The notes beneath the pieces were generated by a model, which made no database searches, had not been told where the DNA came from, and saw only the letters and a program-made list of their open reading frames with translations. Below are positions 280 to 28,784 of a stretch of 64,000 nucleotides of DNA, piece by piece. How positions within the stretch are numbered: the stretch's first letter is position 1; the number at the start of each line of letters is the position of its first letter. Both the position numbers and the translations under genes were made by a program. The stretch is from Eledone cirrhosa (taxonomy: Eukaryota): positions 124,001 through 188,000 of the forward strand of contig CAXHJY010000151.1 of the NCBI GenBank assembly GCA_964016885.1, given 5' to 3'.

Positions 280-310
<31 letters not shown>

Positions 311-2615: not shown

Positions 2616-2616
2616 G

Positions 2617-2657
<41 letters not shown>

Positions 2658-2689
2658 TATTATTTGTTTTATTATAATCAAAATATGCT

Positions 2690-3205: not shown

Positions 3206-3255
3206 CGCATCTAAACCTGGCCCTTACCCTAACCCCAACCTCTTTGGTTTTCGTT

Positions 3256-4090
3256 TTCTCGACGGCTAGCCGCATTTCGTGATCCGCCTTTCGATTGCGC
3301 TTCCGTCGCGGCAAAAGAATTGCCTTTCCAGACCGCCGTCGCCCGACCGGACCCATGATAGAAGACGTTCGTTACCGTTGGAGCAACGCAAATTACTCCT
3401 CGGTTGACGCCAAAAACGAACGCCTTCCCGCCTCGCGCCGCCTTCTCCTCGCCGACCCTCGGCCTCGACGATTAGCCACTTTCCGTCACAGCAGTAGATA
3501 CGCGTCCGTCGTAATAGCCGTCATTTTAACGCAGGAGAAACGCCTAATTGCCCTGCACCGCGTTTGACGGCGATCTACGACGGCGACGATGCGCGCACTC
3601 TTCCTTGCTGCGACGAAGGTTTCGGCTTTTCGTCGTGGACCCGGTCAGGTCATGCCGCTGACCTCGCGTTACGGCGACGCGAGAAGACGTTCGTTACCGC
3701 TGGAGCAACGCAAATTACTCCTCGGTTGACGCCAAAAACGAACGCCTCGCGCCGCCGCTTCCTCCTCGGCCTCGACGATTAGCCGCTTTCCGTCACAGCA
3801 GTAGATACGCGTCCATCGTAATAGCCGTCATTTTAACGCAGGAGAAACGCCTTGACGACGATATACGACGGGTCGACGACGCGCGCACTCTTTCTGCTGC
3901 GACGAAGGTTTTGGCTTTTCGTTGTGGACCCGGTCGGGTCATGCCTCTGACCTCGCGTTGCGTCGCCACCGCCGCGGCGGGCTTGGGTTTAGCCGTAGCT
4001 ACCCTCGTTTTGCCAACGGCGACGCGAGAAGACGTTCGTTACCGCTGGAGCAACGCAAATTACTCCTCGGATGAGGCCAAAAACGAACGC
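3256..4090 (+). repeat. Displaced, diverged copy of the rDNA spacer/ETS-like sequence
   Basis: Shares the 169-bp repeat sequence and the 11530-11820 ETS-like block (present twice here); core motif AGAAGACGTTCGTTACCGCTGGAGCAACGC at ~3360, 3682, 4027. Copy B 34726-35560. Confidence 0.85.
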
Positions 4091-4169
4091 TGAAGAGATA
4101 TTGTCCATGGATATCGGGAATTTTACCCGCCCTAGATAGATAGATAGATAGGGATGTATGTATGTATGT

Positions 4170-4211
<42 letters not shown>

Positions 4212-4590
4212 GTATGTATCTTTCTCATTCTCTCTGTATGTATGTATGTATGTATATATATATAATTATATATTTATAGACATCCTGAAAGCTTTTTAAA
4301 TGTCTGAGAGATTGGCTAAATATGTTTTGCAGGTATGACCAGTAAGAGAGAGGTAAGTTATTTCAAAACAATTCTTTGACCATTATTTTAAGGTACTATC
4401 TCAGTGTATTTTTAAATTGACCTCTTGATAGGATGAAATGACCTGTATAATTTTTTTCATATTTAGATGGAATAGAAGAAAAACAAGAAAAATGAAATGA
4501 ATTCAAACAGAAAATATACACCAATGCCAATGGAGGTATGATTTCAGTTTAATCTTAACCTAATGACCACTTTACAGAGTGTACTGGATA

Positions 4591-4673
<83 letters not shown>

Positions 4674-5124
4674 AGGAAGCTCCAACCGTTAAGGTTGTCT
4701 TTCCATTTATTAATATATTGTGTATTTACTCCACTAAACTGTTGAGTGCTTTATATCAGTTATAAAAAAATTTCAGCTTGTTGAATCCCAAAATAGTTGT
4801 TGAAACAGCCACAGCTCAGCCGTCGGGGTCCTGAATATTTATCATATATATATACGTATGAGTGTGTGTGTTTTGAGAATTAATAATTATATAAACAAGT
4901 TTGTAATGAACAATTTATTTCTTATCAAAACTGTATAAACATGATATTATTTACAGTAAGAATAACAATAATAATGATGGTTTCTAGTAAAGGTGGAAGG
5001 CCAGTAATTTGGGGGAGGGGAAAGTTGATTAAATCGAAGAGAGAAAGAAAGAAAAAACAGAACGGGAAGGAGAGGGGATGGCAAGAGGTCCGGTGTCGCA
5101 GGAGAGAGGGGAGGGTGGTTGAGC

Positions 5125-5625
5125 TTTGAGTCTAGGGCAAGAGGGCAGAAATGCTGCGCCCCACGGATAAGACGGCAAAAATATTCTCGCGGACGATGGC
5201 CAGAGATACCCAATGCAACAACCACCCAACCTCGCGGTGTTCCCTCCTCAGATGGGCTGCTGACTCTCCGATCTTTTGGAGGAGCTCGGCAGTACAAGGT
5301 CCAAGTACTCCTGGGGTCTCGACGTTGACTGGTGCAGAGAGGAAGTGGCCGGACAATCCTCGGTATTTGTTTATTTTACGTTCTTCTGCGAGGTGGGCTG
5401 CGATGCCGGGGTTTGTGACCGAAACGACTTGGAAACGAAGTTGTAGGCGGAGATTGTGTCGTAGCTGGTGGTGTCCCAGATGAGGGACCTACGTCCTTCG
5501 AATGGGAAGAGAGTGATTCCGTCGGGGCGCTTGCCATCTCCGGGACCTGTTGGCCCCAGTTGTGATGGGAAGCCAGCTGCGTCCAGGCTTCTTCTCAATA
5601 TGTCGTTGACAACGACGTGTATCTA
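5125..5625 (-). mobile_element. CRE-like RLE non-LTR retrotransposon 3' fragment
   Basis: Frameshifted RRSLDAAGFPSQL..DGKRPDGITLFPFEGRRSLIWD, then PVNVETPGVLGP..SLAIVREN: restriction-like endonuclease motifs. Copy B 36581-37081. Confidence 0.7.
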
Positions 5626-6164
5626 TTCAATAATTATTTGAATATTGAAATTTTAGGTTTAACTACCTTTTAAACCAAATACATTAAGAAAGGCATGACC
5701 AACACCACATCATTTTTATTTCTATTTTGAAAGTAGGTTTATAAGTATTAAATTTCAGTAGATTCTTATATCCTTCATGGTGGTCTGGTGGGAGATACGA
5801 GAGATGGTGGAGGTTCTGGTCTGGGGTTCAATCCTGCTCAGGAGATACTCTAAGGGGGTTCATACTAAACTTCTTCAGTGTTTCTTATCTCTAGAGACAA
5901 ATATATATACATAAGGTAATCTGGTAAAGTTGTTAGAACATCACATAGAATTCTTTGTAGTATTTTTTCCAGTTCTTCAATCTGAGTTCAACTTTACTTT
6001 TCTTCCATTCGGGGTTGATAATAACGTACCAGTCAAATACTAGGGGTTAATTCTTCCTCTATATCTCTTTCTCACTCTCTGTCTGTTTTATTAAGACCTG
6101 GAGAGGTGATGTACTCTACCAGGTTTTATAATGAGTGATGGGGTCATACCTGCCTGCTACACCT

Positions 6165-6700
6165 CTGTGTACTAAGTGTAGCATATTATATCCTTGTTCA
6201 GGGCCTTCCTGACATTACTGTGTACTAAGGGTAGCATTTTATATCCTTGTTCAGGGCCATCTTAACATTGCTGTGTACTAAGTGTAGCATATTATATCCT
6301 TGTTCGGGGCCTTCCTGACATTAGTGTGTACTGAGTGTAGATTTTAACATCCTTGTTCTGGGCCTTCCTAACATTACTGTGTACTGAGTGTAGATTTTAA
6401 CATCTTTGTTCAGGGCCTTCCTAACATTGCTGTGTACTAGGTGTAGCATATTATATCCTTGTTCAGGGCCCTCCTGACATTACTGTGTACTAAGTGTAGA
6501 TTTTGATATCCTTGTTCAGGGCCATCCTAACATTACTGTGTACTAAGAGTAGCATTATATATCCTTGTTCAGGGCCTTCCTAACATTACTGTGTACTAAA
6601 TGTAGATTTGGATATCCTTGTTCAGAGCCTTCCTTACATTACTGTGTACTAAGTGTAGCATTTCATATACTTGTTCTGGGCCTTCCTAACGTTACTGTGG
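6165..6700. repeat. 53-bp minisatellite (10 units; 6 in copy B at 37621-37944)
   Basis: Unit CTGTGTACTAAGTGTAGCATATTATATCCTTGTTCAGGGCCTTCCTGACATTA; offset change of 212 bp = 4 x 53. Confidence 0.9.
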
Positions 6701-7480
6701 AAATAGTAGTTTATATCCAATATGTAATATAGATATGGATTCTACAGGACTAAAACTCATTAATATGAGGGGTATTAGTAGATTATATGCCATATTTAAT
6801 AGAGAAATGGCTTCTACAAGACTAAAACTCATTAATATGAGGGGTATTACAGTTTATATGCCATATTTAATACAGAAATGGCTTCTAAAGGACTAGAACT
6901 CTTTAAATTGAATAAAATAGTAGTATATATCCTATGTTTAATACAGAAATGCCTTCTAAAGGACTCATTAATATGAGGGTATTAGTAGATTATATAACAT
7001 ATTTAATACAGAAATGGCTTTTAAATTCAGGGACTCGTTAATTTGATGGAAATAGTAGTGTCTATGCAATATTTAATACAGAAATAGCTTCTACAGGACT
7101 AAAACTAATTAATATGAGGGGTATTAGTAGTATATGTGCCATATTTAATACAGAGATGGCTTCTAAATGGAGGTATCTCATTAATTCGATTGAAATGGTA
7201 GTGTATATGCAATATTTAATACAGAAATAGCTTCTACAAGAATAAAACTCATTAATATGAAGGTTATTATTACATTATATGCCATATTTAATACAGAAAT
7301 CGGTTCTAAAGGACTAGAACTCTTTAATTCAAATCAAATAGTAGTATAAAGCAATATTTACTACAGAAATGGCTTCTACAAGACTAAAAATCCTTAATAT
7401 GAGGGGTATTGTTAGATTATATACCATATTTAATACAGAAATGGCTTCTAAATGAAGAAATCTCTTTAATTCGATAGTAA
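6700..7480. repeat. Diverged ~71-bp AT-rich minisatellite
   Basis: ATTTAATACAGAAATGGCTTCTA recurs about every 65-73 bp; copy B ~37945-38725. Confidence 0.8.
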
Positions 7481-8131
7481 TAGTAATAATAATAATAGTA
7501 ATAGTAATAATACAGCCAATTTTCCACGCAATACTTTTAGTTAGCACCCCGAACGCATAATTGGGAATATAATCACTTATTTCCTAATGTTTGTTGAGTG
7601 AGTTGGGAAAAAAAACTTGGGAAATATATTTTCAGGGTCTCAAAATCTTAAAGAGAAAAAAAAGTCCTGTGGAAGGTAGCAAAACAATTAGGAAGAAAAT
7701 GGTTTGAAGTTGGTTGGTGAGTATAAGATTACAGTATCTTGTTGATTTCTATAAAGTTTACTTTTAACTGAATTGGTAAAAATGGATAAATTAGAAGACA
7801 CAATATAATAACTAATATTGTCTTCTAAAACAGGGAATAAAAATATGTTGGTGTATTGGGGGGGGGGGGGGGTAAACATGTGAGTTAATGGGAATGTTTT
7901 TGTTTGTTTTTATTGAAACATATTCAATCTACAGATAGGTTGTTATAGTTATTTAGTCTCGGGTCTGCCATTATCTGCAGATTTATAATTGAGGGGTGTT
8001 CCAGGTGTGACCACCCTACATTATTCCTAGAGATTGTTACTCCTTCATTCTTCAGTCATCTTGGTCTTCTTATGAGATGGTGGTGTAGTCTTATTTATTG
8101 TTAAGGTTATGGTCTTCCTTTGTCCACACTC

Positions 8132-8169
<38 letters not shown>

Positions 8170-8449
8170 AAAGGCTTCCTTCTCTGGAAAAAGATGATTT
8201 AATATTCACAACCATCTGTCTAATTGTTTTCTGATGAGAATAAAGTTAATCTTGCTTGTATGTCTACCTGATCAAATGACTGGCTGATATCTTGAAGTCA
8301 TTTACACCACAGAACTGTAGGAGTCTTGATCCCTCAAGCCATACCTCTAGCCATCATGTACTCCAAAAGAGTCTCACCTTGGTGCTACTCAACATGTCCA
8401 TTAAATTTAGCAGCAAGGATGCCCTCTTCTTAGTGAGAGACAACTACAA

Positions 8450-9200
8450 GAGAGGTTCTTAGAGAAGAATAAGCCACTATAGTTAACTTTTGTTGACATA
8501 GAGAACCCCGATCTGTCATCTGGTGGTCCTTAAGGAAACTAGGTGTAGGGGAATGGCTTGTGAGGACAGTGCAAGCTATGTACAAGGGTGCTGTCAGTAA
8601 AGTGAGAGGAGGAATTCCAGAAACAAAGTAGGTGTACATCAGGGTTCGGTCCTCAGTCCGCTCTTGTTCATTATAGTCCTCCCTCCCTCCCTCCCTCCCT
8701 CCCTCCCTCCAAGCCATAACAGAGGAGGAGTAGTTTAAGACTGGATGCCCATGGGAACTTCTCTATGCTGACGATCTGGTTCTTATAGCAGAATCAGTAG
8801 AGGAGCTAGCTAGAGAATAAATTCTGGCTATGGAAACAGCAGTAGTTGGAATCAAGAAGACTGAGAGTGAACCTAGCTAAGACAAAAGTGTTTATAAGTA
8901 GAAGAGAGGACAAAACTCTGATTCTGTCAGGGAAATGGCCATGTTCGATATGTAGGAAAGGAGTTGGCATAAATTCTATGAAATGTAGTACGCAATGCAG
9001 ATCTTGGCTACACAAGAGATGTAGTGGGATAGCAGGAAAACTGACTGACAGGTAGGGAGAAATACGTATGCAGTAGATGTACAGGGAAATTTGACAGAGA
9101 TTGCAGTGATAGACACATTTTTCAAATGCAGGTGGGATCTATAGAGGGAGTTGATAGCTTCTGATACCTAGGTGATCAGATTAGTAAGGGAGGAGGGTGA
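8450..9200 (+). mobile_element. RTE-like reverse transcriptase pseudogene with downstream Cys-rich (PHD-like) finger
   Basis: Encodes KVGVHQGSVLSPLLF, WELLYADDLVLIAES, LRVNLAKTKV, GKWPCSICRKGVG..WLHKRCSG; interrupted by (CCCT)n and stops. Copy B ~39697-40443. Confidence 0.9.
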
Positions 9201-9731
9201 TATAAAATATATTGTTATCATGACTGTCTTTATTATTTAAATTACCTCTGTCTATTTACAGATTTTACAGAGTGTACTGGGTGCTTTTATGATGGGAGCA
9301 GCAACTCTATACGATTTTACAGAGTGTACTTGGTGCTTTTATCATGGCACATGGCAGCAGCAGCAGCAGCAGCAACTACGATTTTACAGAGTGTACTTGG
9401 TGCTTTTTACTCTGACATCAGCACTGAGGAAGTTGTCATATTTTCAGCTAAATTAATGAGTAGAAAAACCAAGTTTCTGCTACAAAAAATTCTCAGATTC
9501 AAGGGAGACATTCAGTTTAAGTATGGTATACTGTCACTAAGGCAGCAAATTGGCAGAGTCGCTAGAATATCAGATAGCATTCTTTACATTATTTGTTTCA
9601 GCTCTCTGTTCTCTCAATTCAAATCCTGCTCAGGTCAACTTTGCCTTTCATCCATACAAAATAGATTAATAAAAGTACCAGTGTATTACTGGGGTCAATT
9701 CTTCTTCTAACTCTTCTGCACTTCCATTCTC

Positions 9732-9768
<37 letters not shown>

Positions 9769-10029
9769 GCTTCTTTAGAACACATCTGCTGTATTCAGAC
9801 CTGGAGCGGAGATGGGCTCCACCAAGTTTTAAAAATTGCCCTTTAAGCGCTGTATGTCAATATGGTGCCCCTATGATTCCCTCCCTCAGGAGTTATGGGA
9901 CCATAGATACTGTCAATTGTAAAGAATAACAGAGATATTCAGTGCTAGTGTGGTGTTCTGTCAGTTGTGGAGATTGATGAATCTAAACAGAAATATCAAC
10001 AGCACTTTTCATTTCTGAGTAACACATTT

Positions 10030-10190
10030 GTTACCAAGTGCTGCATGGCTGGAATGAAAATCAGTGCTGTGAAAACCAAGACATTCATCCTCTCAAGGAA
10101 GCTTGTGCAGTGCACTCTACATGTAAATGGAGTCCCACTGAAGCAGGTAGAAAAGTTCATGTATCTCGAAGCTGTGTTCACGAGTGATGA
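10030..10190 (+). mobile_element. LINE RT thumb-region fragment
   Basis: GMKISAVKTKT..VNGVPLKQVEKFMYL motif; copy B at +31278. Confidence 0.7.
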
Positions 10191-10331
10191 CAGAGACGGC
10201 AAAGGCACAACACACAACAGAAGAAAAGAACAATGACAATTATTATTATTATTATTATTATTATTATTTGTTTTATTAGTTTTATTATAATAAAAATTGT
10301 GCTGTTAGTTTGCTTGCTATACCATCATGTA

Positions 10332-10416
10332 CCCTAACCCTAAACCTAACACCAACTCCAACTCTGACCCTAAACCTAACCCCAACCCCAACCCTAACCC
10401 TAACCCTAACCCTAAC
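10332..10416. repeat. Interstitial telomere-like (CCCTAA)n tract
   Basis: Degenerate then perfect CCCTAA units abutting the 169-bp array; copy B 41610-41694. Confidence 0.8.
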
Positions 10417-11508
10417 CCACGATAGAAGACGTTCGTTACCGCTGGAGCAACGCAAATTACTCCTCGGTTGACGCCAAAAACGAACGCCTTCTCGACGGCT
10501 AGCCGCATTTCGTGATCCGCCTTTCGATTGCGCTTCCGTCGCGGAAAAAGAATTGCCTTTATAGGCCGCCGCCGCCCGACCGGACCCACGATAGAAGACG
10601 TTCGTTACCGCTGGAGCAACGCAAATTACTCCTCGGTTGACGCCAAAAACGAACGCCTTCTCGACGGCTAGCCGCATTTCGTGATCCGCCTTTCGATTGC
10701 GCTTCCGTCGCGGAAAAAGAATTGCCTTTATAGGCCGCCGCCGCCCGACCGGACCCACGATAGAAGACGTTCGTTACCGCTGGAGCAACGCAAATTACTC
10801 CTCGGTTGACGCCAAAAACGAACGCCTTCTCGACGGCTAGCCGCATTTCGTGATCCGCCTTTCGATTGCGCTTCCGTCGCGGAAAAAGAATTGCCTTTAT
10901 AGGCCGCCGCCGCCCGACCGGACCCACGATAGAAGACGTTCGTTACCGCTGGAGCAACGCAAATTACTCCTCGGTTGACGCCAAAAACGAACGCCTTCTC
11001 GACGGCTAGCCGCATTTCGTGATCCGCCTTTCGATTGCGCTTCCGTCGCGGAAAAAGAATTGCCTTTATAGGCCGCCGCCGCCCGACCGGACCCACGATA
11101 GAAGACGTTCGTTACCGCTGGAGCAACGCAAATTACTCCTCGGTTGACGCCAAAAACGAACGCCTTCTCGACGGCTAGCCGCATTTCGTGATCCGCCTTT
11201 CGATTGCGCTTCCGTCGCGGAAAAAGAATTGCCTTTATAGGCCGCCGCCGCCCGACCGGACCCACGATAGAAGACGTTCGTTACCGCTGGAGCAACGCAA
11301 ATTACTCCTCGGTTGACGCCAAAAACGAACGCCTTCTCGACGGCTAGCCGCATTTCGTGATCCGCCTTTCGATTGCGCTTCCGTCGCGGAAAAAGAATTG
11401 CCTTTATAGGCCGCCGCCGCCGCCCGACCGGACCCACGATAGAAGACGTTCGTTACCGCTGGAGCAACGCAAATTACTCCTCGGTTGACGCCAAAAACGA
11501 ACGCCTTC
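10416..11508 (+). promoter_or_regulatory. 169-bp rDNA spacer-like tandem array (6 full + 1 partial), candidate Pol I spacer promoters
   Basis: Exact 169-bp period; each full unit has CCTTTATAGGCCGCC (TATAGG at 10560 ... 11405); lies upstream of an 18S 5' end. Promoter function is inference. Confidence 0.6.
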
Positions 11509-11865
11509 CGGTTCGGGCGACGTAAAAGTCTGTAGCCTTTTCGCCGATCCTCGACGATTATCCGCCTTCCGAACAACCGCCTTTCCGCCGTCACAGCAGT
11601 AGGTACTCGTCCGTCGTAATAGCCGTCATTTTAATGCAGGAGAAACGCCTAAATGCACTGCGATTGACGACGATCTACAACGCGCTTACTCTTCCTTGCT
11701 GCGACGAAGGTTTCGTTCGGCTTTTCGTCGTGGACCCGGTCAGGTCATGCCGCTGATCTCGCGTTGCGTCGTTACCGCTGGAGCAACGCAAATTACTCCT
11801 CGTTTAACGCCAACATCGAACGCGCTTCGGTTCTCGGTCGTCGTTGTTTTGTTTCGTGCGGAAGA
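11509..11865 (+). other. 5' ETS-like region
   Basis: CpG-rich segment directly preceding the 18S start; copy B 42449-42805. Confidence 0.55.
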
Positions 11866-12050
11866 TACCTGGGTGATCCTGCCAGTAGTCATATGCTTGT
11901 CTCAAAGCTTAAGCCATGCAAGTGGAAGTTCATGCCGTAAACGAAAATGGTGAAACCGCGAATGGCTCAGGAACCGGATCTAATCCTCGGGACCGTATTC
12001 CTCACCGCGAGGAGAGGATAACTGTGGCAATTCTAGAGCTAATACATGCA
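11866..12050 (+). pseudogene. 18S rRNA 5' fragment (~185 nt)
   Basis: TACCTGGGTGATCCTGCCAGTAGTCATATGCTTGTCTCAAAGCTTAAGCCATGCA...GTGAAACCGCGAATGGCTCA...GGATAACTGTGGCAATTCTAGAGCTAATACATGC matches the universal eukaryotic SSU start; collinearity is lost after ~12050. Confidence 0.95.
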
Positions 12051-12056
12051 ATTGAG

Positions 12057-15000
12057 ATCGGAGAGGGAGCGATCCGTCTGCTTGATTCCGATAACGAACG
12101 AGACATTCGTATCCGAAAGAACGTTTGTCTGGAAACTGGTGCAGTCAGTGAGTCGAAAAAAAAATATCTCGGTGGTAGTAGCAAATATTCGAACGAGACA
12201 TTCGTATGCGAAAGAACGTTTGTCGGTGGTAGTAGCAAATATTCGAACGAGACATTCGTATGCGAAAGAACGTTTGTCTGGAAGTGGCGATCCATGCCCG
12301 GTGGATAGTTGGTTCCGGGTTTTACTATGATTGTTGCAAAACAGAAACTTAAAGGGATTGACAGAATTTGCGATTCCGGAGAGAGGGCGATCCGTCTGCT
12401 TGATTCCGATAACGAACGAGACATTCGTATCCGAAAGAACGTTTGTCTGGAAACTGGTGAGTCAGTGAGTCGAAAAAAAAATATCTCGGTGGTAGTAGCA
12501 AATATTCGTATGCGAAAGAAAAGATCTCGGTGGTAGTAGCAAATATTCGAACGAGACATTCGTAGGCGAAAGAAAAATATCTCGGTGGTAGTAGCAAATA
12601 TTCGAACGAGACATTCGTATGCGAAAGAACGTTTGTCGGTGGTAGTAGCAAATATTCGAACGAGACATTCGTATGCGAAAGAACGTTTGTCTGGAAGTGG
12701 CGATCCATGCCCGGTGGATAGTTGGTTCCGGGTTTTACTATGATTGTTGCAAAACAGAAACTTAAAGGGATTGACAGAATTTGCGATTACGGAGAGGGGG
12801 CGATCCGTCTGCTTGATTCCGATAACGAACGAGACATTCGTATCCGAAAGAACGTTTGTCTGGAAACTGGTGAGTCAGTGAGTCGAAAAAAAAATATCTC
12901 GGTGGTAGTGGCAAATATTCGAACGAGACATTCGTATGCGAAAGAACGTTTGTCGGTGGTAGTAGCAAATATTCGAACGAGACATTCGTATGCGAAAGAA
13001 CGTTTGTCTGGAAGTGGCGATCCATGCTCGGTGGATAGTTGGTTCCGGGTTTTACTATGATTGTTGCAAAACAGAAACTTAAAGGGATTGACAGAATTTG
13101 CGATTCCGGAGAGGGGGCGATCCGTCTGCTTGATTCCGATAACGAACGAGACATTCGTATCCGAAAGAACGTTTGTCTGGAAACTGGTGAGTCAGTGAGT
13201 CGAAAAAAAAAATATCTCGGTGGTAGTAGCAAATATTCGAACGAGACATTCGTATGCGAAAGAACGTTTGTCGGTGGTAGTAGCAAATATTCGAACGAGA
13301 CATTCGTATGCGAAAGAACGTTTGTCTGGAAGTGGCGATCCATGCTCGGTGGATAGTTGGTTCCGGGTTTTACTATGATTGTTGCAAAACAGAAACTTAA
13401 AGGGATTGACAGAATTTGCGATTCCGGAGAGGGGGCGATCCGTCTGCTTGATTCCGATAACGAACGAGACATTCGTATCCGAAAGAACGTTTGTCTGGAA
13501 ACTGGTGAGTCAGTGAGTCGAAAAAAAAATATCTCGGTGGTAGTAGCAAATATTCGAACGAGACATTCGTATGCGAAAGAACGTTTGTCGGTGGTAGTAG
13601 CAAATATTCGAACGAGACATTCGTATGCGAAAGAACGTTTGTCTGGAAGTGGCGATCCATGCCCGGTGGATAGTTGGTTCCGGGTTTTACTATGATTGTT
13701 GCAAAACAGAAACTTAAAGGGATTGACAGAATTTGCGATTCCGGAGAGGGGGCGATCCGTCTGCTTGATTCCGATAACGAACGAGACATTCGTATCCGAA
13801 AGAACGTTTGTCTGGAAACTGGTGAGTCAGTGAGTCGAAAAAAAAATATCTCGGTGGTAGTAGCAAATATTCGAACGAGACATTCGTATGCGAAAGAACG
13901 TTTGTCGGTGGTAGTAGCAAATATTCGAACGAGACATTCGTATGCGAAAGAACGTTTGTCTGGAAGTGGCGATCCATGCCCGGTGGATAGTTGGTTCCGG
14001 GTTTTACTATGATTGTTGCAAAACAGAAACTTAAAGGGATTGACAGAATTTGCGATTCCGGAGAGTGGGCGATCCGTCTGCTTGAATCCGATAACGAACG
14101 AGACATTCGTATCCGAAAGAACGTTTGTCTGGAAACTGGTGAGTCAGTGAGTCGAAAAAAAAATATCTCGGTGGTAGTAGCAAATATTCGTATGCGAAAG
14201 AAAAGATCTCGGTGGTAGTAGCAAATATTCGAACGAGACATTCGTAGGCGAAAGAAAAATATCTCGGTGGTAGTAGCAAATATTCGAACGAGACATTCGT
14301 ATTCGAAAGAACGTTTGTCTGGAAACTGGTGAGTCAGTGAGTCGAAAAAAAAAATATCTCGGTGGTAGTAGCAAATATTCGAACGAGACATTCGTATGCG
14401 AAAGAACGTTTGTCGGTGGTAGTAGCAAATATTCGAACGAGACATTCGTATGCGAAAGAACGTTTGTCGGTGGTAGTAGCAAATATTCGAACGAGACATT
14501 CGTATGCGAAAGAACGTTTGTCTGGAAGTGGCGATCCATGCCCGGTGGATAGTTGGTTCCGGGTTTTACTATGATTGTTGCAAAACAGAAACTTAAAGGG
14601 ATTGACAGAATTTGCGATTCCAGAGAGAGGGCGATCCGTCTGCTTGATTCCGATAACGAACGAGACATTCGTATCCGAAAGAACGTTTGTCTGGAAACTG
14701 GTGAGTCAGTGAGTCGAAAAAAAAATATCTCGGTGGTAGTAGCAAATATTCGAACGAGACATTCGTATGCGAAAGAAAAATATCTCGGTGGTAGTAGCAA
14801 ATATTCGAACGAGACATTCGTATGCGAAAGAACGTTTGTCTGGAAGTGGCGATCCATGCCCGGTGGATAGTTGGTTCCGGGTTTTACTATGATTGTTGCA
14901 AAACAGAAACTTAAAGGGATTGACAGAATTTGCGATTCCGGAGAGGGGGCGATCCGTCTGCTTGATTCCGATAACGAACGAGACATTCGTATCCGAAAGA

Positions 15001-18000
15001 ACGTTTGTCTGGAAACTGGTGAGTCAGTGAGTCGAAAAAAAAATATCTCGGTGGTAGTAGCAAATATTCGTATGCGTAAGAAAAGATCTCGGTGGTAGTA
15101 GCAAATATTCGAACGAGACATTCGTATTCGAAAGAACGTTTGTCTGGAAGTTGCGATCCATGCCCGGTGGATAGTTGGTTCCGGGCTTTACTACGATTGT
15201 TGCAAAACAGAAACTTAAAGGGATTGACAGAATTTGCGATTCCGGAGAGGGGGCGATCCGTCTGCTTGATTTCGATAACGAACGAGACATTCGTATCCGA
15301 AAGAACGTTTGTCTGGAAACTGGTGAGTCAGTGAGTCGAAAAAAAAAATATCTCGGTGGTAGTAGCAAATATTCGAACGAGACATTCGTATGCGAAAGAA
15401 CGTTTGTCGGTGGTAGTAGCAAATATTCGAACGAGACATTCGTATGCGAAAGAACGTTTGTCGGTGGTAGTAGCAAATATTCGAACGAGACATTCGTATG
15501 CGAAAGAACGTTTGTCTGGAAGTGGCGATCCATGCCCGGTGGATAGTTGGTTCCGGGTTTTACTATGATTGTTGCAAAACAGAAACTTAAAGGGATTGAC
15601 AGAATTTGCGATTCCAGAGAGAGGGCGATCCGTCTGCTTGATTCCGATAACGAACGAGACATTCGTATCCGAAAGAACGTTTGTCTGGAAACTGGTGAGT
15701 CAGTGAGTCGAAAAAAAAAATATCTCGGTGGTAGTAGCAAATATTCGAACGAGACATTCGTATGCGAAAGAACGTTTGTCGGTGGTAGTAGCAAATATTC
15801 GAACGAGACATTCGTATGCGAAAGAACGTTTGTCGGTGGTAGTAGCAAATATTCGAACGAGACATTCGTATGCGAAAGAACGTTTGTCTGGAAGTGGCGA
15901 TCCATGCCCGGTGGATAGTTGGTTCCGGGTTTTACTATGATTGTTGCAAAACAGAAACTTAAAGGGATTGACAGAATTTGCGATTCCGGAGAGGGGGCGA
16001 TCCGTCTGCTTGAATCCGATAACGAACGAGACATTCGTATCCGAGAGAACGTTTGTCTGGAAACTGGTGAGTCAGTGAGTCGAAAAAAAAATATCTCGGT
16101 GGTAGTAGCAAATATTCGAACGAGACATTCGTATGCGAAAGAACGTTTGTCGGTGGTAGTAGCAAATATTCGAACGAGACATTCGTATGCGAAAGAACGT
16201 TTGTCTGGAAGTGGCGATCCATGCCCGGTGGATAGTTGGTTCCGGGTTTTACTATGATTGTTGCAAAACAGAAACTTAAAGGGATTGACAGAATTTGCGA
16301 TTCCGGAGAGGGGGCGATCCGTCTGCTTGATTCCGATAACGAACGAGACATTCGTATCCGAAAGAACGTTTGTCTGGAAACTGGTGAGTCAGTGAGTCGA
16401 AAAAAAAAATATCTCGGTGGTAGTAGCAAATATTCGTATGCGAAAGAAAAGATCTCGGTGGTAGTAGCAAATATTCGAACGAGACATTCGTAGGCGAAAG
16501 AAAAATATCTCGGTGGTAGTAGCAAATATTCGAACGAGACATTCGTATTCGAAAGAACGTTTGTCTGGAAGTTGCGATCCATGCCCGGTGGATAGTTGGT
16601 TCCGGGTTTTACTATGATTGTTGCAAAACAGAAACTTAAAGGGATTGACAGAATTTGCGATTCCGGAGAGGGGGCGATCCGTCTGCTTGATTCCGATAAC
16701 GAACGAGACATTCGTATCCGAAAGAACGTTTGTCTGGAAACTGGTGAGTCAGTGAGTCGAAAAAAAAAATATCTCGGTGGTAGTAGCAAATATTCGAACG
16801 AGACATTCGTATGCGAAAGAACGTTTGTCGGTGGTAGTAGCAAATATTCGAACGAGACATTCGTATGCGAAAGAACGTTTGTCGGTGGTAGCAAATATTC
16901 GAACGAGACATTCGTATGCGAATGAACGTTTGTCTGGAAGTGGCGATCCATGCCCGGTGGATAGTTGGTTCCGGGTTTTACTATGATTGTTGCAAAACAG
17001 AAACTTAAAGGGATTGACAGAATTTGCGATTCCGGAGAGGGGGCGATCCGTCTGCTTGATTCCGATAACGAACGAGACATTCGTATCCGAAAGAACGTTT
17101 GTCTGGAAACTGGTGAGTCAGTGAGTCGAAAAAAAAATATCTCGGTGGTAGTAGCAAATATTCGAACGAGACATTCGTATGCGAAAGAACGTTTGTCTGG
17201 AAGTGGCGATCCATGCCCGGTGGATAGTTGGTTCCGGGTTTTACTATGATTGTTGCAAAACAGAAACTTAAAGGGATTGACAGAATTTGCGATTCCGGAG
17301 AGGGGGCGATCCGTCTGCTTGATTCCGATAACGAACGAGACATTCGTATCCGAAAGAACGTTTGTCTGGAAACTGGTGAGTCAGTGAGTCGAAAAAAAAA
17401 ATATCTCGGTGGTAGTAGCAAATATTCGAACGAGACATTCGTATGCGAAAGAACGTTTGTCGGTGGTAGTAGCAAATATTCGAACGAGACATTCGTATGC
17501 GAAAGAACGTTTGTCGGTGGTAGTAGCAAATATTCGAACGAGACATTCGTATGCGAAAGAACGTTTGTCTGGAAGTGGCGATCCATGCCCGGTGGATAGT
17601 TGGTTCCGGGTTTTACTATGATTGTTGCAAAACAGAAACTTAAAGGGATTGACAGAATTTGCGATTCCGGAGAGAGGGCGATCCGTCTGCTTGATTCCGA
17701 TAACGAACGAGACATTCGTATCCGAGAGAACGTTTGTCTGGAAACTGGTGAGTCAGTGAGTCGAAAAAAAAATATCTCGGTGGTAGTAGCAAATATTCGA
17801 ACGAGACATTCGTATGCGAAAGAACGTTTGTCTGGAAGTGGCGATCCATGCTCGGTGGATAGTTGGTTCCGGGTTTTACTATGATTGTTGCAAAACAGAA
17901 ACTTAAAGGGATTGACAGAATTTGCGATTCCGGAGAGGGGGCGATCCGTCTGCTTGATTCCGATAACGAACGAGACATTCGTATCCGAAAGAACGTTTGT

Positions 18001-18285
18001 CTGGAAACTGGTGAGTCAGTGAGTCGAAAAAAAAATATCTCGGTGGTAGTAGCAAATATTCGTATGCGAAAGAAAAGATCTCGGTGGTAGTAGCAAATAT
18101 TCGAACGAGACATTCGTATGCGAAAGAAAAATATCTCGGTGGTAGTAGCAAATATTCGAACGAGACATTCGTATTCGAAAGAACGTTTGTCTGGAAGTTG
18201 CGATCCATGCCCGGTGGATAGTTGGTTCCGGGCTTTACTATGATTGTTGCAAAACAGAAACTTAAAGGAATTGACAGAATTTTCG
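12057..18285 (+). repeat. rRNA-mosaic satellite: 18 units of mostly 263 + 54n bp built from 18S and 28S fragments
   Basis: Units contain GATTCCGGAGAGGG(A)GC, GTCTGCTTGATTCCGATAACGAACGAGAC, GGTTCCGGG..GTTGCAAAACAGAAACTTAAAGG(A/G)ATTGAC (18S motifs) and ATCTCGGTGGTAGTAGCAAATATTCGAACGAGA (28S motif); unit markers at 12309, 12722, 13039 ... 17863, 18222. Confidence 0.9.
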
Positions 18286-18317
18286 AATCGACATCAACTC
18301 GGCTACGGCTATCCCGT

Positions 18318-18670
18318 CGAGTACGAGAGTATCGCGGGATCAGAGCAACGGTTTGCTAGGCTGCCTCTGAGCGATAACGGCTGAACGCCTCCTCTAAGCC
18401 GGAACCCTAGCCGGACCCGAGTTGTTTTTCGACAAGCGTCTCGACCTTCTTAAGGCCCATGCCTTAGTTTGGCGATTGCCGTCCGTTCGCCGACGGCGGC
18501 AGCGTCAGCGGAAATGCCATTCTGTGACGACTACGACGATTCGTCGTCGTCGTCGTCCATTCGATTTCCTGAAAGAGATAGAGACTAAAGTGATCAAATT
18601 GTTCGGAGTTACGTGCTTAGTAGAGCAGCTACCACACTGCAATCTATTGAGAGTTTTCTGACGAACGATA
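18318..18670 (+). pseudogene. Degenerate 28S rRNA 3' region (sarcin-ricin loop to 3' end)
   Basis: AGTACGAGAG-TATCGCGGGATCAGA (canonical AGTACGAGAGGAACCGCAGGTTCAGA) at 18320; GGCTGAACGCCTCCTCTAAGCCGGAA; GTAGAGCAGCTACCACACTGCAATCTATTGAGAGT near the LSU 3' end. Confidence 0.85.
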
Positions 18671-19090
18671 CAATCCGCCCACGTGGCGCCAGAAAGGGAG
18701 AAGAAAAGAAAAGTTAGACGCCGCCGATCGATCGGTTCGTTGTTTTACGTGTACACAGCTTGTGTGTGTGTCTGTATGTGATACAAGCCGCCTATCCGTC
18801 TTCCAAGTAAGTTTTGTGTGTAGACTGCGGAAAGAAATCCAATCCGCCGTCTAGGCGGTTCTGCCGCCGACCCATACTTTTGCGAGTCGCTCCCGGGAAA
18901 GACAGGCGGCAAGACGGCGTGTATACACGACGCCTTCCGTCTTCCGCCTCGAACCCGGGCAAACGTTCCTTTATTCGTCCACGCCTTCCCGCTTCGATCG
19001 CGAGAAAGTAATCAATCTGTTTTGTGTGTGTGTCTGTGTGTGATACAAATTTGTTTTCTTAATTTGATAACCATGAATTGTTTCAACACC

Positions 19091-19106
19091 GGCCCTTTTA
19101 AGGGCC
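19091..19106 (+). promoter_or_regulatory. Histone mRNA 3' stem-loop-like element (orphan)
   Basis: GGCCCT-TTTA-AGGGCC followed by AC and preceded by A/C-rich CAACACC, matching the 6-bp stem/4-nt loop metazoan consensus; no histone ORF upstream. Copy B 49702-49717. Confidence 0.65.
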
Positions 19107-19691
19107 ACTTATATTTTCAATAATCAGTTTAAATGGGTTGCACCGTAGCCACTTGGTAATACACTGCAAATCTCCCGTCAATCTATGAAGGTTTTGTAGT
19201 AGATTAGATCAAAACACAATCAGCAAGACAGTAATGGAATGAATAATATAAACATTTGTTTATAATTAAAGCCTTAAGATGTCCCTCCCTCCCTCCCTTC
19301 CTTCCTTCCTTCCTTCCTTCCTTCCTTCCTTCCTTACGATATACACTTTAATAACATTGAAACTTATTTAATAAGTTTAAATTTTAAACACTTTTTATTC
19401 AGACGTACCGCGATAAGTAACTAGATATGTTCTAACGAATAATCCGCGATGTGGCGAGGATTACCGCGATAGGAAATTAGATACGTTCCAAAGAAATATC
19501 CGCGAAAAGTGAACCGCGATATAGCGGGTTCACCAGCCAGTGTATTACTGGTACTTTATTTTATCGACCCCCATAAGGATGAAAGGCAAAGTTAACTGTG
19601 CAATAACAAAGGGAGATAACCTCGTCTTTTTTTTTTTACGGAGTTATTTCCCTTTAAATTTTATCTATTACTTATGATGATACAATTTAAT

Positions 19692-19822
19692 CAGTTCTTA
19701 GCTGTCGAGACACTGCATCCTTTAAAACCTCCATGGAACAAGCTACCTGCAACAGTTGTTAGCTGTCGAGACACTGCATCTTTTAAAACCTCCATGGAAC
19801 AAACTACCTGCATCAGTTGTTA
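19692..19822 (+). mobile_element. Tandemly duplicated ~62-bp LINE (CR1/L2-like) 3' fragment
   Basis: Two copies of TTAGCTGTCGAGACACTGCATC..TTTAAAACCTCCATGGAACAA.CTACCTGCA; translates WNKLPATVVSCRDTASFK. Confidence 0.5.
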
Positions 19823-20091
19823 GGGTCTGAGTTCAAATCACGCCGAGGAGGTTAACTTTGCCTTTCATCCTTACGGGGTCGGTCGGAAAACGAACCATTC
19901 CCGGTTCGCTTTCGAAGCGGGTTTCCGAAAACAGCGCTTCTCTCGACCGGGCCCGTCGTCCGCTCGGCGGTGGTTTTCATCGTCCCAGGCACGGCTAACA
20001 GGCGGAGACGGGACAAACGCGCGTGTTCCTTTTTTTATCAGCCGCAGCGCCGTTCGTATATATGCTTAGGTTGTTTTTTTTTTAAATATCC

Positions 20092-20322
20092 TAAGTTAAG
20101 TTGGGGCTAAGTTAAGTTGGGGCTAAGTTAAGTTGAGGTTAAGTTGAGTTGGGGTTAAGTTAAGTGGGGGTTAAGTTAAGCTGGGGTTAAGTTAAGTTGA
20201 GGTTAAGTTAAGTTGGGGTTAAGTCAAGTTGGGGTTAAGTTAAGTTGGGGTTAAGTTAGGTTGGGGTTAAGTTAGGTTGGGGTTAAGTTAAGTTGGGGTT
20301 AGGTTAGGTTGCGGTTAAGTTA
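20092..20322. repeat. G-rich ~16-bp minisatellite (TTAAGTTAAGTTGGGG / TTAGGTTGGGG)
   Basis: About 14 degenerate units; copy B 50703-50933. Confidence 0.85.
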
Positions 20323-23300
20323 CATTCGCCGCCGGACTTCAGCTTCCTCATTTAGCATGGGCAGTTTTTCTTGAAAATCACACCACACACAGCAAATGTG
20401 TGTCCGCACATGTACCAGTAATTACAGATCGATTCCGGTGAAAATTCACTGAAAACGGGCCATCCGGCCCTGTGCGTCGATCGTGGGCCGGCCGGATGTT
20501 GACGGATCGATGTGTAATTAGAAGTACATGTGCGGACACTCATTGGCTGTGCGTGGTATGCATTTCAGCAAGATATCTCCGTAACATCAAGAGTTATGGC
20601 TGTGGAGGCACACCTAGTCAAACGTAAACAAGGTCTGGAGCGTTTACGCTTCGCGATTTTGTTTACGTTTGACTAGGTGTGCCTCCACAGCCACAACTCT
20701 TGATGTTACGGAGATATCTTGCTGAAATGCATACCGCGCACAGCCAATGAGTGTCCGCACATGTACTTCTAATTACACATCGATCCGTCAACATCCGGCC
20801 GGCCCACGATCGACGCACAGGGCCGGATGGCCCGTTTTCAGTGAATTTTCACCGGAATCGATCTGTAATTACTGGTACATGTGCGGAGACACATTTGCTG
20901 TGTGTGGTGTGATTTTCAAGAAAAACTGCCCATGCTAAATGAGGAAGCTGAAGTCCGCCGGCGAATGGTGTGCTTCGAAGAAAACTAATTCGAAAATGAC
21001 CGTTTGCAGGCGGAGTAACCTTTTCGATCGTGGGCCAGCCGCCCGTGGTGGGATCCATCTGTAATTACTGGTACATGTGCGGACATACATTTGCTGTGTG
21101 TGGTGTGATTTTCAAGAAGAACTGCCCATGCTAAATGAGGAAGCTGAAGTCCGCCGGCGAATGGTGTGCTTCGAAGAAAACTAATTCGAAAATGACCGTT
21201 TGCAGGCGGAGTAACCTTTTCGATCGTGGGCCAGCCGCCCGTGGTGGGATCCATCTGTAATTACTGGTACATGTGCGGACATACATTTGCTGTGTGTGGT
21301 GTGATTTTCAAGAAGAACTGCCCATGCTAAATGAGGAAGCTGAAGTCCGCCGGCGAATGGTGTGCTTCGAAGAAAACTAATTCGAAAATGACCGTTTGCA
21401 GGCGGGGTAACCTTTTCGATCGTGGGCCAGCCGCCCGTGGTGGGATCCATCTGTAATTACTGGTACATGTGCGGACACACATTTGCTGTGTGTGGTGTGA
21501 TTTTCGAGAAAGACTGCCCATGCTAAATGAGGAAGCTGAAGTCCGCCGGCGAATGGTGTGCTTCGAAGAAAACTAATTCGAAAATGAGTATTTGCCGGCG
21601 GAATCACCTTTTCGGTCCTGGTCCGGCCGGATCTTGCCGGATCGATCGGAAATTTGTGGACCATGTTCGGAAGGCCATTGTGCATGTGTGGTGAAAAAAA
21701 TTTGTGTCGAAATCTTCTCGGAAAATAACGGATCGCCGGCGGAGATTGCCATTTCGATCGTGGGCCGGCCGGATCTTGTCGGATCGATTCGGACATATGT
21801 GCATCGTGTTCGCAAGGCCCTTGTCTATGTGTGGTGTGATTTTCATAAAGAAATTCCGAAAAACCCAGTTTTAAATCTGATTTCGCCAAAGAATTTTGGG
21901 TATCAGATCGGGTTGAAAGGTATGGTTTCAGGTCGATCTGAAAGTCTAAAATGGAATTCACTCGGTTAGCTAACTTTTGATATATCGGAGATATCTTTCT
22001 GAAAATCACACCACACACTCCCAATGAGTGTCTGCACATGTACCAGTAATTACAGATGGATCCCACCACGGGCGGCCGGCCCACGATCGAAAAGGTTACT
22101 CCGAAGCACACCATTCGCCGGCGGAATTCATTTAGCATGGGCAGTTTTTCTCGAAAATCACACCACACACAGCCAATGAGTGTCCGCACATGTACCAGTA
22201 ATTACAGATGGATCCCACCACGGGCGGCTGGCCCACGATCGAAAAGGTTACTCCGCCTGCAAACGGTCATTTTCGAATTAGTTTTCTTCGAAGCACACCA
22301 TTCGCCGGCGGACTTCAGCTTCCTCATTTAGCATGGGCAGTTTTTCTCGAAAATCACACCACACACAGCAAATGTGTGTCCGCACATGTACCAGTAATTA
22401 CAGATCGATTCCGGTGAAAATTCACTGAAAACGGGCCATTCTGCCCTGTGCGTCGATCGTGGGCCGGCCGGATGTTGACGGATCGATGTGTAATTAGAAG
22501 TACATGTGCGGACACTCATTGGCTGTGCGTGGTATGCATTTCAGCAAGATATCTCCGTAACATCAAGAGTTATGGCTGTGGAGGCACACCTAGTCAAACG
22601 TAAACAAGCTCTGGAGCGTATACGCTTCGCGATTTTGTTTACGTTTGACTAGGTGTGCCTCCACAGCCACAACTCTTGATGTTACGGAGATATCTTGCTG
22701 AAATGCATACCACGCACAGCCAATGAGTGTCCGCACATGTACTTCTAATTACACATCGATCCGTCAACATCCGGCCGGCCCACGATCGACGCACAGGGCC
22801 GGATGGCCCGTTTTCAGTGAATTTTCACCGGAATCGATCTGTAATTACTGGTACATGTGCGGACACACATTTGCTGTGTGTGGTGTGATTTTCACGAAAA
22901 ACTGCCCATGCTAAATGAGGAAGCTGAAGTCCGCCGGCGAATGGTGTGCTTCGAAGAAAACTAATTCGAAAATGACCGTTTGCAGGCGGAGTAACCTTTT
23001 CGATCGTGGGCCAGCCGCCCGTGGTGGGATACATCTGTAATTACTGGTACATGTGCGGACACACATTTGCTGTGTGTGGTGTGATTTTCGAGAAAGACTG
23101 CCCATGCTAAATGAGGAAGCTGAAGTCCGCCGGCGAATGGTGTGCTTCGAAGAAAACTAATTCGAAAATGACTATTTGCCGGCGGAATCACCTTTTCGGT
23201 CCTGGTCCGGCCGGATCTTGCCGGATCGATCGGAAATTTGTGGACCATGTTCGGAAGGCCATTGTGCATGTGTGGTGAAAAAAATTTGTGTCGAAATCTT

Positions 23301-24350
23301 CTCGGAAAATAACGGATCGCCGGCGGAGATTGCCATTTCGATCGTGGGCCGGCCGGATCTTGTCGGATCGATTCGGACATATGTGCATCGTGTTCGCAAG
23401 GCCCTTGTCTATGTGTGGTGTGATTTTCATAAAGAAATTCCGAAAAACCCAGTTTTAAATCTGATTTCGCCAAAGAATTTTGGCTATCAGATCGGGTTGA
23501 AAGGTATGGTTTCAGGTCGATCTGAAAGTCTAAAATGGAATTCACTCGGTTAGCTAACTATTGATATATCGGAGATATCTTTCTGAAAATCACACCACAC
23601 ACTCCCAATGAGTGTCTGCACATGTACCAGTAATTACAGATGGATCCCACCACGGGCGGCCGGCCCACGATCGAAAAGGTTACTCCGAAGCACACCATTC
23701 GCCGGCGGAATTCATTTAGCATGGGCAGTTTTTCTCGAAAATCACACCACACACAGCCAATGAGTGTCCGCACATGTACCAGTAATTACAGATGGATCCC
23801 ACCACGGGCGGCTGGCCCACGATCGAAAAGGTTACTCCGCCTGCAAACGGTCATTTTCGAATTAGTTTTCTTCGAAGCACACCATTCGCCGGCGGACTTC
23901 AGCTTCCTCATTTAGCATGGGCAGTTTTTCTTGAAAATCACACCACACACAGCAAATGTGTGTCCGCACATGTACCAGTAATTACAGATCGATTCCGGTG
24001 AAAATTCACTGAAAACGGGCCATTCGGCCCTGTGCGTCGATCGTGGGCCGGCCGGATGTTGACGGATCGATGTGTAATTAGAAGTACATGTGCGGACACT
24101 CATTGGCTGTGCGTGGTATGCATTTCACTAAGATATCTCCGTAACATCAAGAGTTATGGCTGTGGAGGCACACCTAGTCAAACGTAAACAAGGTCTGGAG
24201 CGTTTACGCTTCGCGATTTTGTTTACGTTTGACTAGGTGTGCCTCCACAGCGACAACTCTTGATGTTACGGAGATATCTTGCTGAAATTCATACCACGCA
24301 CAGCCAATGAGTGTCCGCACATGTACCTGTAATTACACATCGATCCGACG
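20323..24350. repeat. Fold-back satellite: 196-bp monomers in alternating orientation, 1584-bp higher-order unit
   Basis: Mirror ORFs 20352-/20747+; hairpin centres at ~20645, ~22621, ~24205; periods 1976 (=1584+2x196) and 1584. Confidence 0.9.
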
Positions 24351-24429
24351 ACGGACAGAGTATTCGGTTTATTTTCTTGACATATTTCTTTACATATTGT
24401 CCAGGCATGCACTTTTTCCATGATTAGTT

Positions 24430-24489
24430 CTGTTGACGGCCCGCTTTCCAAAATACCTTATCCTGTGCAACGCCGGGTACCACTGCTAG
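24430..24489 (+). mobile_element. Helitron-type 3' terminus
   Basis: CCTGTGCAACGCCGGG hairpin, short spacer, then CTAG followed by T. Confidence 0.7.
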
Positions 24490-24884
24490 TATATATATGT
24501 GTATGTATATATATATATATATATTGGTAAACGGAATAGAAAATTGTGACAAATTGTTCACAGTGAAAAATAGTTTAATTAGGAATAAGTGATAATTAGT
24601 AATAGTATTGGTTAGTATTAAGTTTTGGTTTTAAGTTTTACCGGTTGCGCATTTCTAATGCTTTTCAAAAATAATTTTGAGATAGAGCGTCCGTGATGTT
24701 TGCTCTGATCTGTATATATATATATATATATATAGACAAACAGTAGAAAGGAAAAAGATTTTTTCAGTAGAAATTGCTGAAGAGATTCTTTCAGTGTAAT
24801 TTCAAAACATTAATTTATTTATAAAGTGGATATTTCCACATTTAATAATGGCACTGGGTTCAGCATTATATACATTGTCAATTG

Positions 24885-25215
24885 TGGATTCTACTTTTGG
24901 CACAAGGGCTGCAATTATCCAGTACATTACTGGTACTTTATTATTTATACAAATAATAATTGTTTCTACTTTTGGCACAAGGGCAGCAATTACCCAGTAC
25001 ATTACTGGTACTTTATTATTTATACAAATAATAATTGTTTCTACTTTAGGCACAAGGTCAGCAATTACCCAGTACATTACTGGTACTTTATTATTTATAC
25101 AAATAATAATTGTTTCTACTTTAGGCACAAGGTCAGCAATTACCCCAGTACTTTATTTTATCGACCCCGTAAGGATGAAAGAAAAGTTAACCTCAACGGG
25201 ATTTGAACTCAGTCT
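24885..25215 (-). repeat. 75-bp minisatellite derived from a SINE tail, plus adjacent SINE fragment (copy A only)
   Basis: About 3.3 units of 75 bp, then TTTATCGACCCCGTAAGGATGAAAG..GTTAACCTC..ATTTGAACTCAG, the reverse complement of the SINE core at 29432. Confidence 0.75.
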
Positions 25216-25303
25216 GTAAAGGGAGGTAACTGCTGGATTAATTTGGTTAATTAAGTTAACAGAAATTATGAACCGGTTTCTACAGAGCCTTCTGGACATT
25301 TAA

Positions 25304-25524
25304 CCCTTTAGCATTTAAACCAGCCATACCTAGCCAGAATACTCTCACATCTTTCTGTTCAAACCAGCCATAACTGGCCACTCATACTGACGTTAAGGTA
25401 TTGTTCTCAATATAAATAATATCAAAATCTCATAGATTCGATATTATATGAGATAATTATGTAAGATAAAGCCTTTACCACAAAAATACAATAGTATATA
25501 TAGAGTAATAAAAATGCTAAAGGG
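25304..25524. mobile_element. piggyBac-like MITE (221 bp)
   Basis: TIR CCCTTTAGCATTT / AAATGCTAAAGGG flanked by TTAA on the left and TAAA on the right. Copy B 58555-58775. Confidence 0.75.
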
Positions 25525-28690: not shown

Positions 28691-28784
28691 TGTGCACGGA
28701 CTCAAACATACATCTAGTAGGCCCCTCCTAACCACTATACTCCTTTCCAAACTCCCACACTCCCACTTCTGTACACACCACCTT

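Follow-up and report, generated by a model that had tools for sequence, protein, structure and literature searches.

The 64,000-nt window analysed here (C178:124001-188000 of the 3.0 Gb assembly of the octopod Eledone cirrhosa) carries two copies of an element built from pieces of the species' own 45S ribosomal DNA (rDNA). The reading that we favour, and consider probable, is that the element is a collapsed copy of the host 45S unit that lacks the putative RNA polymerase I (Pol I) promoter, contains an internally amplified mosaic and is a likely non-functional passenger in a recently expanded, likely Z-linked macrosatellite. An earlier note on this DNA had argued that it was not an ordinary truncated pseudogene. 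That judgement holds, as the element is a rebuilt, internally amplified rDNA derivative set in a larger tandem repeat, and among the options that the note offered, an rDNA-derived satellite is the best supported.

Host 45S units were located via 5.8S ribosomal RNA (rRNA), with 29 matches among 40 scored candidates, and were annotated for 18S (2,876 nt), 5.8S and 28S. As a reference we used the unit on chromosome C12 that carries the sole empty R2 target site in the assembly. Compared with this unit, every rDNA-matching piece of the element is sense strand, and the order from 5′ to 3′ is telomere-like repeats, a 169-bp repeat, scraps of the 5′ external transcribed spacer (ETS), 18S nt 1–186, an array of the form (A-Bn-C)m, the 28S 3′ end with deletions, scraps of the intergenic spacer (IGS) and a histone-type stem-loop (table 1). 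The telomere-like tract joins the ETS via four shared bases. The 169-bp repeats, of which other units hold 4–8 copies, had been taken for spacer repeats; they match sub-repeats of the 5′ETS instead, not repeats of the IGS or promoter. A relaxed Rfam scan of positions 10300–19200 recovered the 28S 3′ end (RF02543 at 18293–18675, 61.6 bits, E 7e-13) and, weakly, the 18S 5′ end (26.5 bits); at gathering level, Rfam found only two histone stem-loops in the whole window. The comparison with the host 45S unit and RF02543 thus confirms the 18S 5′ end, ETS-like DNA, mosaic array of approximately 6 kb and 28S sarcin–ricin region with 3′ end that had been recognized from the letters alone, as well as the presence of two copies with all pieces on the plus strand. 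In the second copy, the 169-bp repeat occupies 41693–42448 and the 18S 5′ end starts at 42806. The element retains approximately 310 of the 2,876 nt of 18S and 430 of the 5,099 nt of 28S, with no clear 5.8S, so it does not hold a complete 18S/5.8S/28S set. Its tail contains IGS pieces from up to 2.7 kb beyond the 28S end. Protein coding was considered and rejected: the long minus-strand frames are repeat read-through, and none of the five frames reached the Pfam cut-off.

The array, 6.2 kb long in the first copy, consists of pieces of 11–54 nt from 18S, the internal transcribed spacer 1 (ITS1) and 28S. Module A joins 18S 575–592, 18S 2042–2080 and ITS1 289–307 to a linker with an A-tract; module B (54 bp) combines 28S 2074–2113 with an ITS1 piece; and module C is made of 28S 1389–1406, 18S 1843–1896 and 18S 1976–1986. 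The native rDNA order claimed for the element therefore stands for its skeleton but fails inside the array, where the path jumps back from 28S to ITS1, from 28S to 18S and from 18S 1986 to 18S 575. Similarly, the middle has indeed been rebuilt and amplified, although not purely from short conserved cores, as one piece is ITS1. One 318-bp array unit has five exact matches of at least 15 nt to the host 45S unit, compared with none in each of 100 dinucleotide-model shuffles and none on the reverse strand. For 5.8S, no exact match of at least 10 nt was found in the array, while the 40-nt linker resembles 5.8S by eye only. The linker pattern has 928 matches in the assembly, about the number that 59 arrays would give; among the 100 of these that were listed, all were array copies and none was a donor outside the arrays. 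All 25 copies examined parse as (A-Bn-C)m, with n = 1–7, and across 32 arrays m ranges from 2 to 30 (mean 15.5). The array unit and the 169-bp unit fold no better than shuffled sequences (z −0.47 and −0.90).

The 3′ stem-loop of the element is a conserved histone-type structure (RF00032, 36.6 bits, cut-off 34). Its source is a dispersed palindromic repeat (L085-L114) in which two histone-type stem-loops face away from each other, 51 bp apart, and which is densest at C18:4.9-12.7 Mb. A genome-wide search for exact copies of the stem-loop gave 131 matches, and the C28 array described below accounts for 45 of these. A neighbouring histone gene cluster was rejected as an explanation, as the 30 stem-loop loci inspected among these matches all lacked histone motifs within 1.5 kb.

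The host IGS consists of 709-bp repeats, each with TATATAGGG, and the last copy of this motif lies 2,167 nt upstream of 18S. This agrees with the consensus for arthropod start sites and with the arrangement of spacer promoters given in PMC2590618 (here and below, statements on cited sources refer to the parts available to us). We regard TATATAGGG as marking a candidate start for Pol I in an octopod, its position being taken from the motif and the consensus from arthropods. It is present in the putative promoter (L021:6907) and in the IGS repeats of units on C12, C25, C4 and C6. The 64-kb window contains no occurrence of it, and a comparison of host positions −250 to +196 with the 31-kb unit gave no core match, only two scraps, 33 nt of IGS in the tail and 19 nt of ETS. 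Since the 169-bp repeat comes from ETS downstream of the putative start and the window lacks the motif, the transcription unit appears not to have kept its 5′ end, contrary to the view that both ends survive. With the start placed by the motif, the element has no Pol I core promoter or start of the kind that a functional 45S unit carries, and the proposal of a Pol I-driven RNA gains no support.

Host rDNA itself is interrupted. In all eight units first examined, the R2 target site holds an insertion (1,158–1,240 nt in the seven measured), and such insertions are found in at least 12 rDNA units or remnants on six chromosomes (C12, e.g. L022:6972-8208; C3, C4, C6, C10 and C25), matching no Rfam family. 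The 3′ junction lies at the usual R2 cut, and the insertions are likely a non-autonomous R2-type element. The functional rDNA array is probably collapsed in the assembly.

Alignment of the element with host rDNA shows 70 substitutions over 1,320 sites (5.3%). Divergence is 3.9% for the ETS end and 18S start, 3.5–4.9% for the ETS and 2.3–9.8% for the 28S tail, so the rRNA parts have not changed more slowly than the spacers, as they would in a functional 45S unit. The substitutions include the 18S start motif and the sarcin–ricin flank, both of which are known as universally conserved. CpG decay showed no excess (8 of 320 CpG sites changed versus 10 of 415 other C/G sites). Among 463 C-A modules from 32 arrays, variant alleles occur at 23 of 134 rDNA-matching and 14 of 62 linker sites (p = 0.48), a comparison of low power in which the variants are not independent; module B is nearly all rDNA-matching and thus gives no constraint test. 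With 18S and ETS diverging alike and the array variants evenly spread, the idea of constraint on the rRNA cores is not borne out. Copies picked as best matches differ pairwise by only 0.06% in the head and 0.02% in the tail. Selection was rejected as the cause, because in an unselected 400 kb the whole unit is equally uniform: most unique 300-bp windows have 0–2 variable sites among 7–10 copies, retroelement remnants included. Such near-invariance of the whole 31–51-kb unit suggests that its amplification was recent. We see no sign of constraint in the element, as for an rDNA pseudogene, although power is low since the copies are near-identical.

Self-alignment of the window revealed an outer repeat with offsets of 30.6–33.3 kb and 98.9–99.8% identity, in agreement with the tandem repeat of 31–33 kb first proposed. 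In the unselected 400 kb the macrosatellite unit is 31–51 kb long, and the element makes up 2–12 kb of it. An 18S variant specific to the element is found 59 times in the assembly: 43 times on C28, 15 times on five unplaced contigs and once on C18. On C28 the copies form a tandem array at approximately 124.692–126.475 Mb (1.78 Mb). The element derives from host rDNA and lies outside the rDNA array: the only intact R2 target site is on C12, and copies of the element are on C28, on C18 and on contigs without a chromosomal place. C28 is 136.5 Mb long, yet it is listed after C26 and C27 (24 and 22 Mb), and it carries amnionless, an exon of which shows 84–85% identity to proteins of Octopus bimaculoides and O. 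sinensis. This gene is Z-linked in O. vulgaris (10.1101/2024.12.09.627507), and Z synteny is reported to be conserved across coleoids (PMC10925132). Together, this one marker gene and the out-of-order size make C28 likely to be the Z chromosome.

Reads from four of 23 listed runs, none of them recorded as RNA, were compared with the shortest copy of the element (L078:1330-3600, m = 2). In run X1, which is DNA-like and possibly from the assembled sample, element contigs were 3714–4171 deep and host rDNA contigs 3373–3692, with all 30 bins covered. These depths suggest that the element is about as numerous as the rDNA.

The construction of the element can be outlined as follows. A whole rDNA unit would first have landed outside the nucleolus organizer region (NOR), after which the telomere-like tract may have replaced its 5′ end, that is, the promoter and the first 196 nt of the ETS. 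The 9.3 kb of 18S–28S could then have shrunk to a few hundred bases, with the middle scrambled, through deletion and template jumping on the DNA, in some cases at short words common to both sides. A loop of 260–430 bp would have been closed by a jump back from module C to module A, and from this loop slippage and unequal crossing-over could have generated the variable-number array, and the surrounding 31–51-kb block would finally have been multiplied to at least 59 copies. Any RNA from such an element would be read-through or background transcription. Of 11 junctions, 2 show exact microhomology of at least 5 nt (5–6 nt), where chance would give 0.7% for each (P = 0.003). The 18S 2042–2080 and 28S 2076–2113 pieces also have a 10-nt word in common. 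The junction data fit DNA deletion and template jumping followed by slippage and unequal crossing-over, without proving them.

Several observations weigh against this reading. The copies are so alike that selection after amplification would be hard to see. At window positions 10552–10573, and likewise in every copy of the 169-bp unit, the sequence departs from the host ETS by two substitutions that bring it closer to the start motif (7 of 9 letters), which could be chance or a new start site. A-BBB-C is the terminal module in all 25 arrays parsed, and the 28S tail and stem-loop are kept in 24 of the 25, although recent common descent explains this. The junctions were hand-picked, with a twelfth dropped because its anchor was missing; microhomology of at least 3 nt is found at only 3 of 11 (P = 0.03), there is no excess when one mismatch is allowed, and eight of the 11 contain 1–9 unassigned bases. 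Finally, run X5, from another sample of the same species and of unrecorded kind, yielded a 289-nt contig over mosaic junctions at a depth of 113.9.

The X5 contig bears on whether the element is transcribed. In this run the 18S contig is 18 times deeper than the ETS-end contig (3903 versus 212), compared with a ratio of approximately 1.1 in X1 (3692 versus 3325), which suggests that X5 is RNA-like. Its depth falls to zero at L078:3230-3533, a gap to which we attach no weight. By analogy with what is thought of MHM, Xist, Rsx and Zmast, the element might specify a Z-linked repeat RNA dosed by copy number, in the form of long or small RNAs with many rRNA words, which would come from read-through or from new starts in the 169-bp repeats and act on Z chromatin or on the handling of pre-rRNA. 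We consider this unlikely. It would accord with the probable Z-linkage of the array, with the junction contig in an RNA-like run, with a copy number near that of rDNA and with the fixed end module, 28S 3′ end and stem-loop of 24 of 25 copies; there are, moreover, tandem-repeat long non-coding RNAs (lncRNAs) on the chicken Z (PMC6771406) and sex-specific Z lncRNAs in octopus (10.1101/2024.12.09.627507). However, dividing the X5 depth by the mean of 15.5 modules per copy leaves approximately 7 per element, which is low for dozens of copies, and the contigs reveal neither strand nor level, so that DNA carry-over could give the same result. No promoter match was seen in the unit, the rRNA words show no constraint and the stem-loop arrived with a dispersed repeat. 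The ETS from which the element is built evolves fast and belongs to this lineage itself, which makes the element likely too recent to be the shared Zmast locus. A variant of the same idea, which we hold to be similarly doubtful, is an rRNA-mimic RNA from dozens to at least 100 copies, each of which would repeat its words from 18S, ITS1 and 28S approximately 15 times and use a borrowed 3′ end of histone type; at twice the dose in ZZ males as in Z0 females, it might titrate pre-ribosome factors, feed small RNAs or tie the Z to the nucleolus. Sharing of the element with other species was rejected: in run X4, from another organism, the mosaic was present unchanged at a depth of 16.7 and host-species ETS at approximately 4, and the deep contigs fitted only a short 18S stretch, a pattern that is probably cross-contamination. 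Fifteen other runs from foreign organisms were listed at shares of 0.15–0.22, which is no evidence for sharing either.

A different question is whether the skeleton arose from RNA, with a retroelement reverse transcriptase jumping along pre-rRNA. This concerns the origin of the element and would leave the verdict on function unchanged. The sense orientation of all pieces would fit, as would the composition of the retained inner pieces, which are richer in A than the unit (0.28 versus 0.19, P = 0.015) and slightly poorer in GC (P = 0.048). In addition, one of the three 28S-tail deletions corresponds to an unusually stable hairpin, and the R2-site insertions attest to retroelement activity in host rDNA. 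On the other hand, the other two deletions are not unusual hairpins, and the tail holds IGS pieces from up to 2.7 kb past the 28S end, which a normal pre-rRNA is not known to reach. Neither a poly(A) tail nor a target duplication was seen at the element, and the unit contains further ETS and 28S scraps outside the element, as a single shredded DNA copy would give. A retro-origin is accordingly improbable in our view.

We also give little credence to a DNA-level role or selfish advantage, on the model of a pseudo-NOR or pairing site, in which the array would attract chromatin factors of rDNA, anchor the Z at the nucleolus or be favoured as a pericentromeric satellite and so drive amplification of the block. 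A 16-bp satellite, also found inside the unit, covers at least 90 kb next to the 1.78-Mb array, the copy number is near that of rDNA and the expansion is recent, all of which such a role could account for. Yet the element lacks the promoter and the spacer-promoter repeats, to which rDNA factors are known to bind, and nothing sets it apart from the rest of the 31–51-kb unit. An assembly artefact is very improbable: although 15 of 59 copies are on unplaced contigs and the C18 copy may be misplaced, array lengths differ copy by copy and restriction-site-associated DNA (RAD) reads of another individual from another study (run X21, starting at L078:2225-2227 and ending at 2333) cross C-A junctions, so the artefact that the earlier note had allowed for is contradicted by the mosaic junctions in a second sample.

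Table 1. Features of the window (coordinates in window positions).
Feature	Position	Strand	Remarks
One macrosatellite period carrying the element	1..31472	.	remainder: microsatellites, retroelement remnants, 16-bp satellite, 196-bp inverted/direct repeat block
Second set of 5′ETS scraps in the macrosatellite unit	3255..4090	+	4.0–7.9% from host rDNA
Degenerate telomere-like tract	10331..10418	+	88 bp, 6-bp period, 14.7 copies (Tandem Repeats Finder, TRF)
169-bp repeat ×6.5	10415..11508	+	from 5′ETS sub-repeats at +197 to +561 relative to the putative start motif
5′ETS patchwork	11509..11865	+	pieces ~+301–316, +592–603, +1033–1275, +858–900, +2109–2152
18S rRNA nt 1–186	11866..12051	+	9 substitutions in 233 aligned sites (ETS end + 18S start)
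Mosaic array (A-Bn-C)×18	12059..18290	+	host 45S matches
28S rRNA 3′ end, nt 4643–5099	18294..18682	+	three internal deletions; altered sarcin–ricin loop flank
3′ETS/IGS sub-repeat scraps	18717..19048	+	without spacer-promoter motif
Half of dispersed palindromic repeat with histone-type 3′ stem-loop	19047..19119	+	no adjacent histone reading frame
Further 28S piece (expansion-segment region near 5′ end)	19887..20092	+	3.1% substitutions
Second copy of the whole element	41609..49741	+	169-bp ×4.5, m = 17

The rest of the macrosatellite unit holds further repeats. The 16-bp satellite (window 20092–20322; also L047 and L168-L171) is G-rich on one strand, has 14 copies per unit and continues for at least 90 kb to the left of the C28 array; it is possibly a pericentromeric repeat. 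Next to it, at 20323–24347, is a 4-kb block of 196-bp units, direct and inverted, with long perfect foldback-like hairpins, whose length varies among units. On visual inspection, a 138-aa frame at 2355–2771 resembles an endonuclease end from an R4/NeSL-type retroelement; it ends in an ATT microsatellite and has no Pfam match. A 5.7-kb insertion, likely a long interspersed nuclear element (LINE; L172:1-5749, L152-L153, L120), is present only in some macrosatellite units and has been copied between them at >99.5% identity. At C18:6.71-6.74 Mb (L053-L055) there is a single near-identical macrosatellite copy, rearranged after the 28S tail and without the stem-loop, which reflects either a recent move or a misplacement.

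SINE28-type retroposons are defined as dispersed copies with marks of retroposition. Here, 58 of the 59 copies are on C28 or unplaced array contigs and there is no poly(A) tail at the end. The element shares with SINE28 and the rDNA-derived elements reviewed in PMC10946416 the presence of 28S sequence outside rDNA, but unlike SINE28 it is tandem, combines ETS, 18S, ITS1, 28S and IGS, and bears no retroposition marks that we could see. Closer in kind are the displaced human rDNA units and pseudogenes of Robicheau et al. 2017 (PMC5381670), which likewise lie outside the NOR, contain 45S and IGS parts, diverge without rRNA constraint and sit beside a large satellite. In contrast to those units, the Eledone element is a mosaic of 11–54-nt pieces that is itself a variable-number array and has been re-amplified to approximately rDNA copy number. 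Among sex-linked loci, chicken MHM1/MHM2 (PMC6771406) is also a tandem-repeat block on the Z, and octopus Zmast/Zfest (10.1101/2024.12.09.627507) is a Z-linked non-coding locus in an octopod; the Eledone array is probably Z-linked too, judging by one marker gene. MHM, however, has demonstrated sex-biased methylation and an lncRNA, whereas the Eledone element is known here from sequence and read contigs, and the available part of the MHM source mentions no rDNA origin. Zmast, compared by description only, is one 18-kb locus expressed at approximately 990 transcripts per million (TPM) in males and common to two species, and the text available to us calls it neither tandem nor rDNA-derived. A literature search of incomplete coverage found no report of the element or of an rDNA-mosaic macrosatellite in cephalopods.

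As a passenger, the element would be a clear case of an rDNA orphon turned into satellite DNA in nested steps, at about the copy number of the true rDNA. With approximately 930 modules that contain conserved 18S and 28S words, it could make fluorescence in situ hybridization (FISH) with rDNA probes, quantitative PCR (qPCR) and k-mer copy estimates show a false NOR on the Z, while its unique junctions would serve as a high-copy marker of Z dosage for sexing. If the junction RNA is real and sex-biased, it would bear on the origin of dosage-related repeat RNAs on the oldest known animal sex chromosome; and if the rRNA-mimic reading were true, this would be a sex-chromosome repeat RNA caught at its birth from rDNA.

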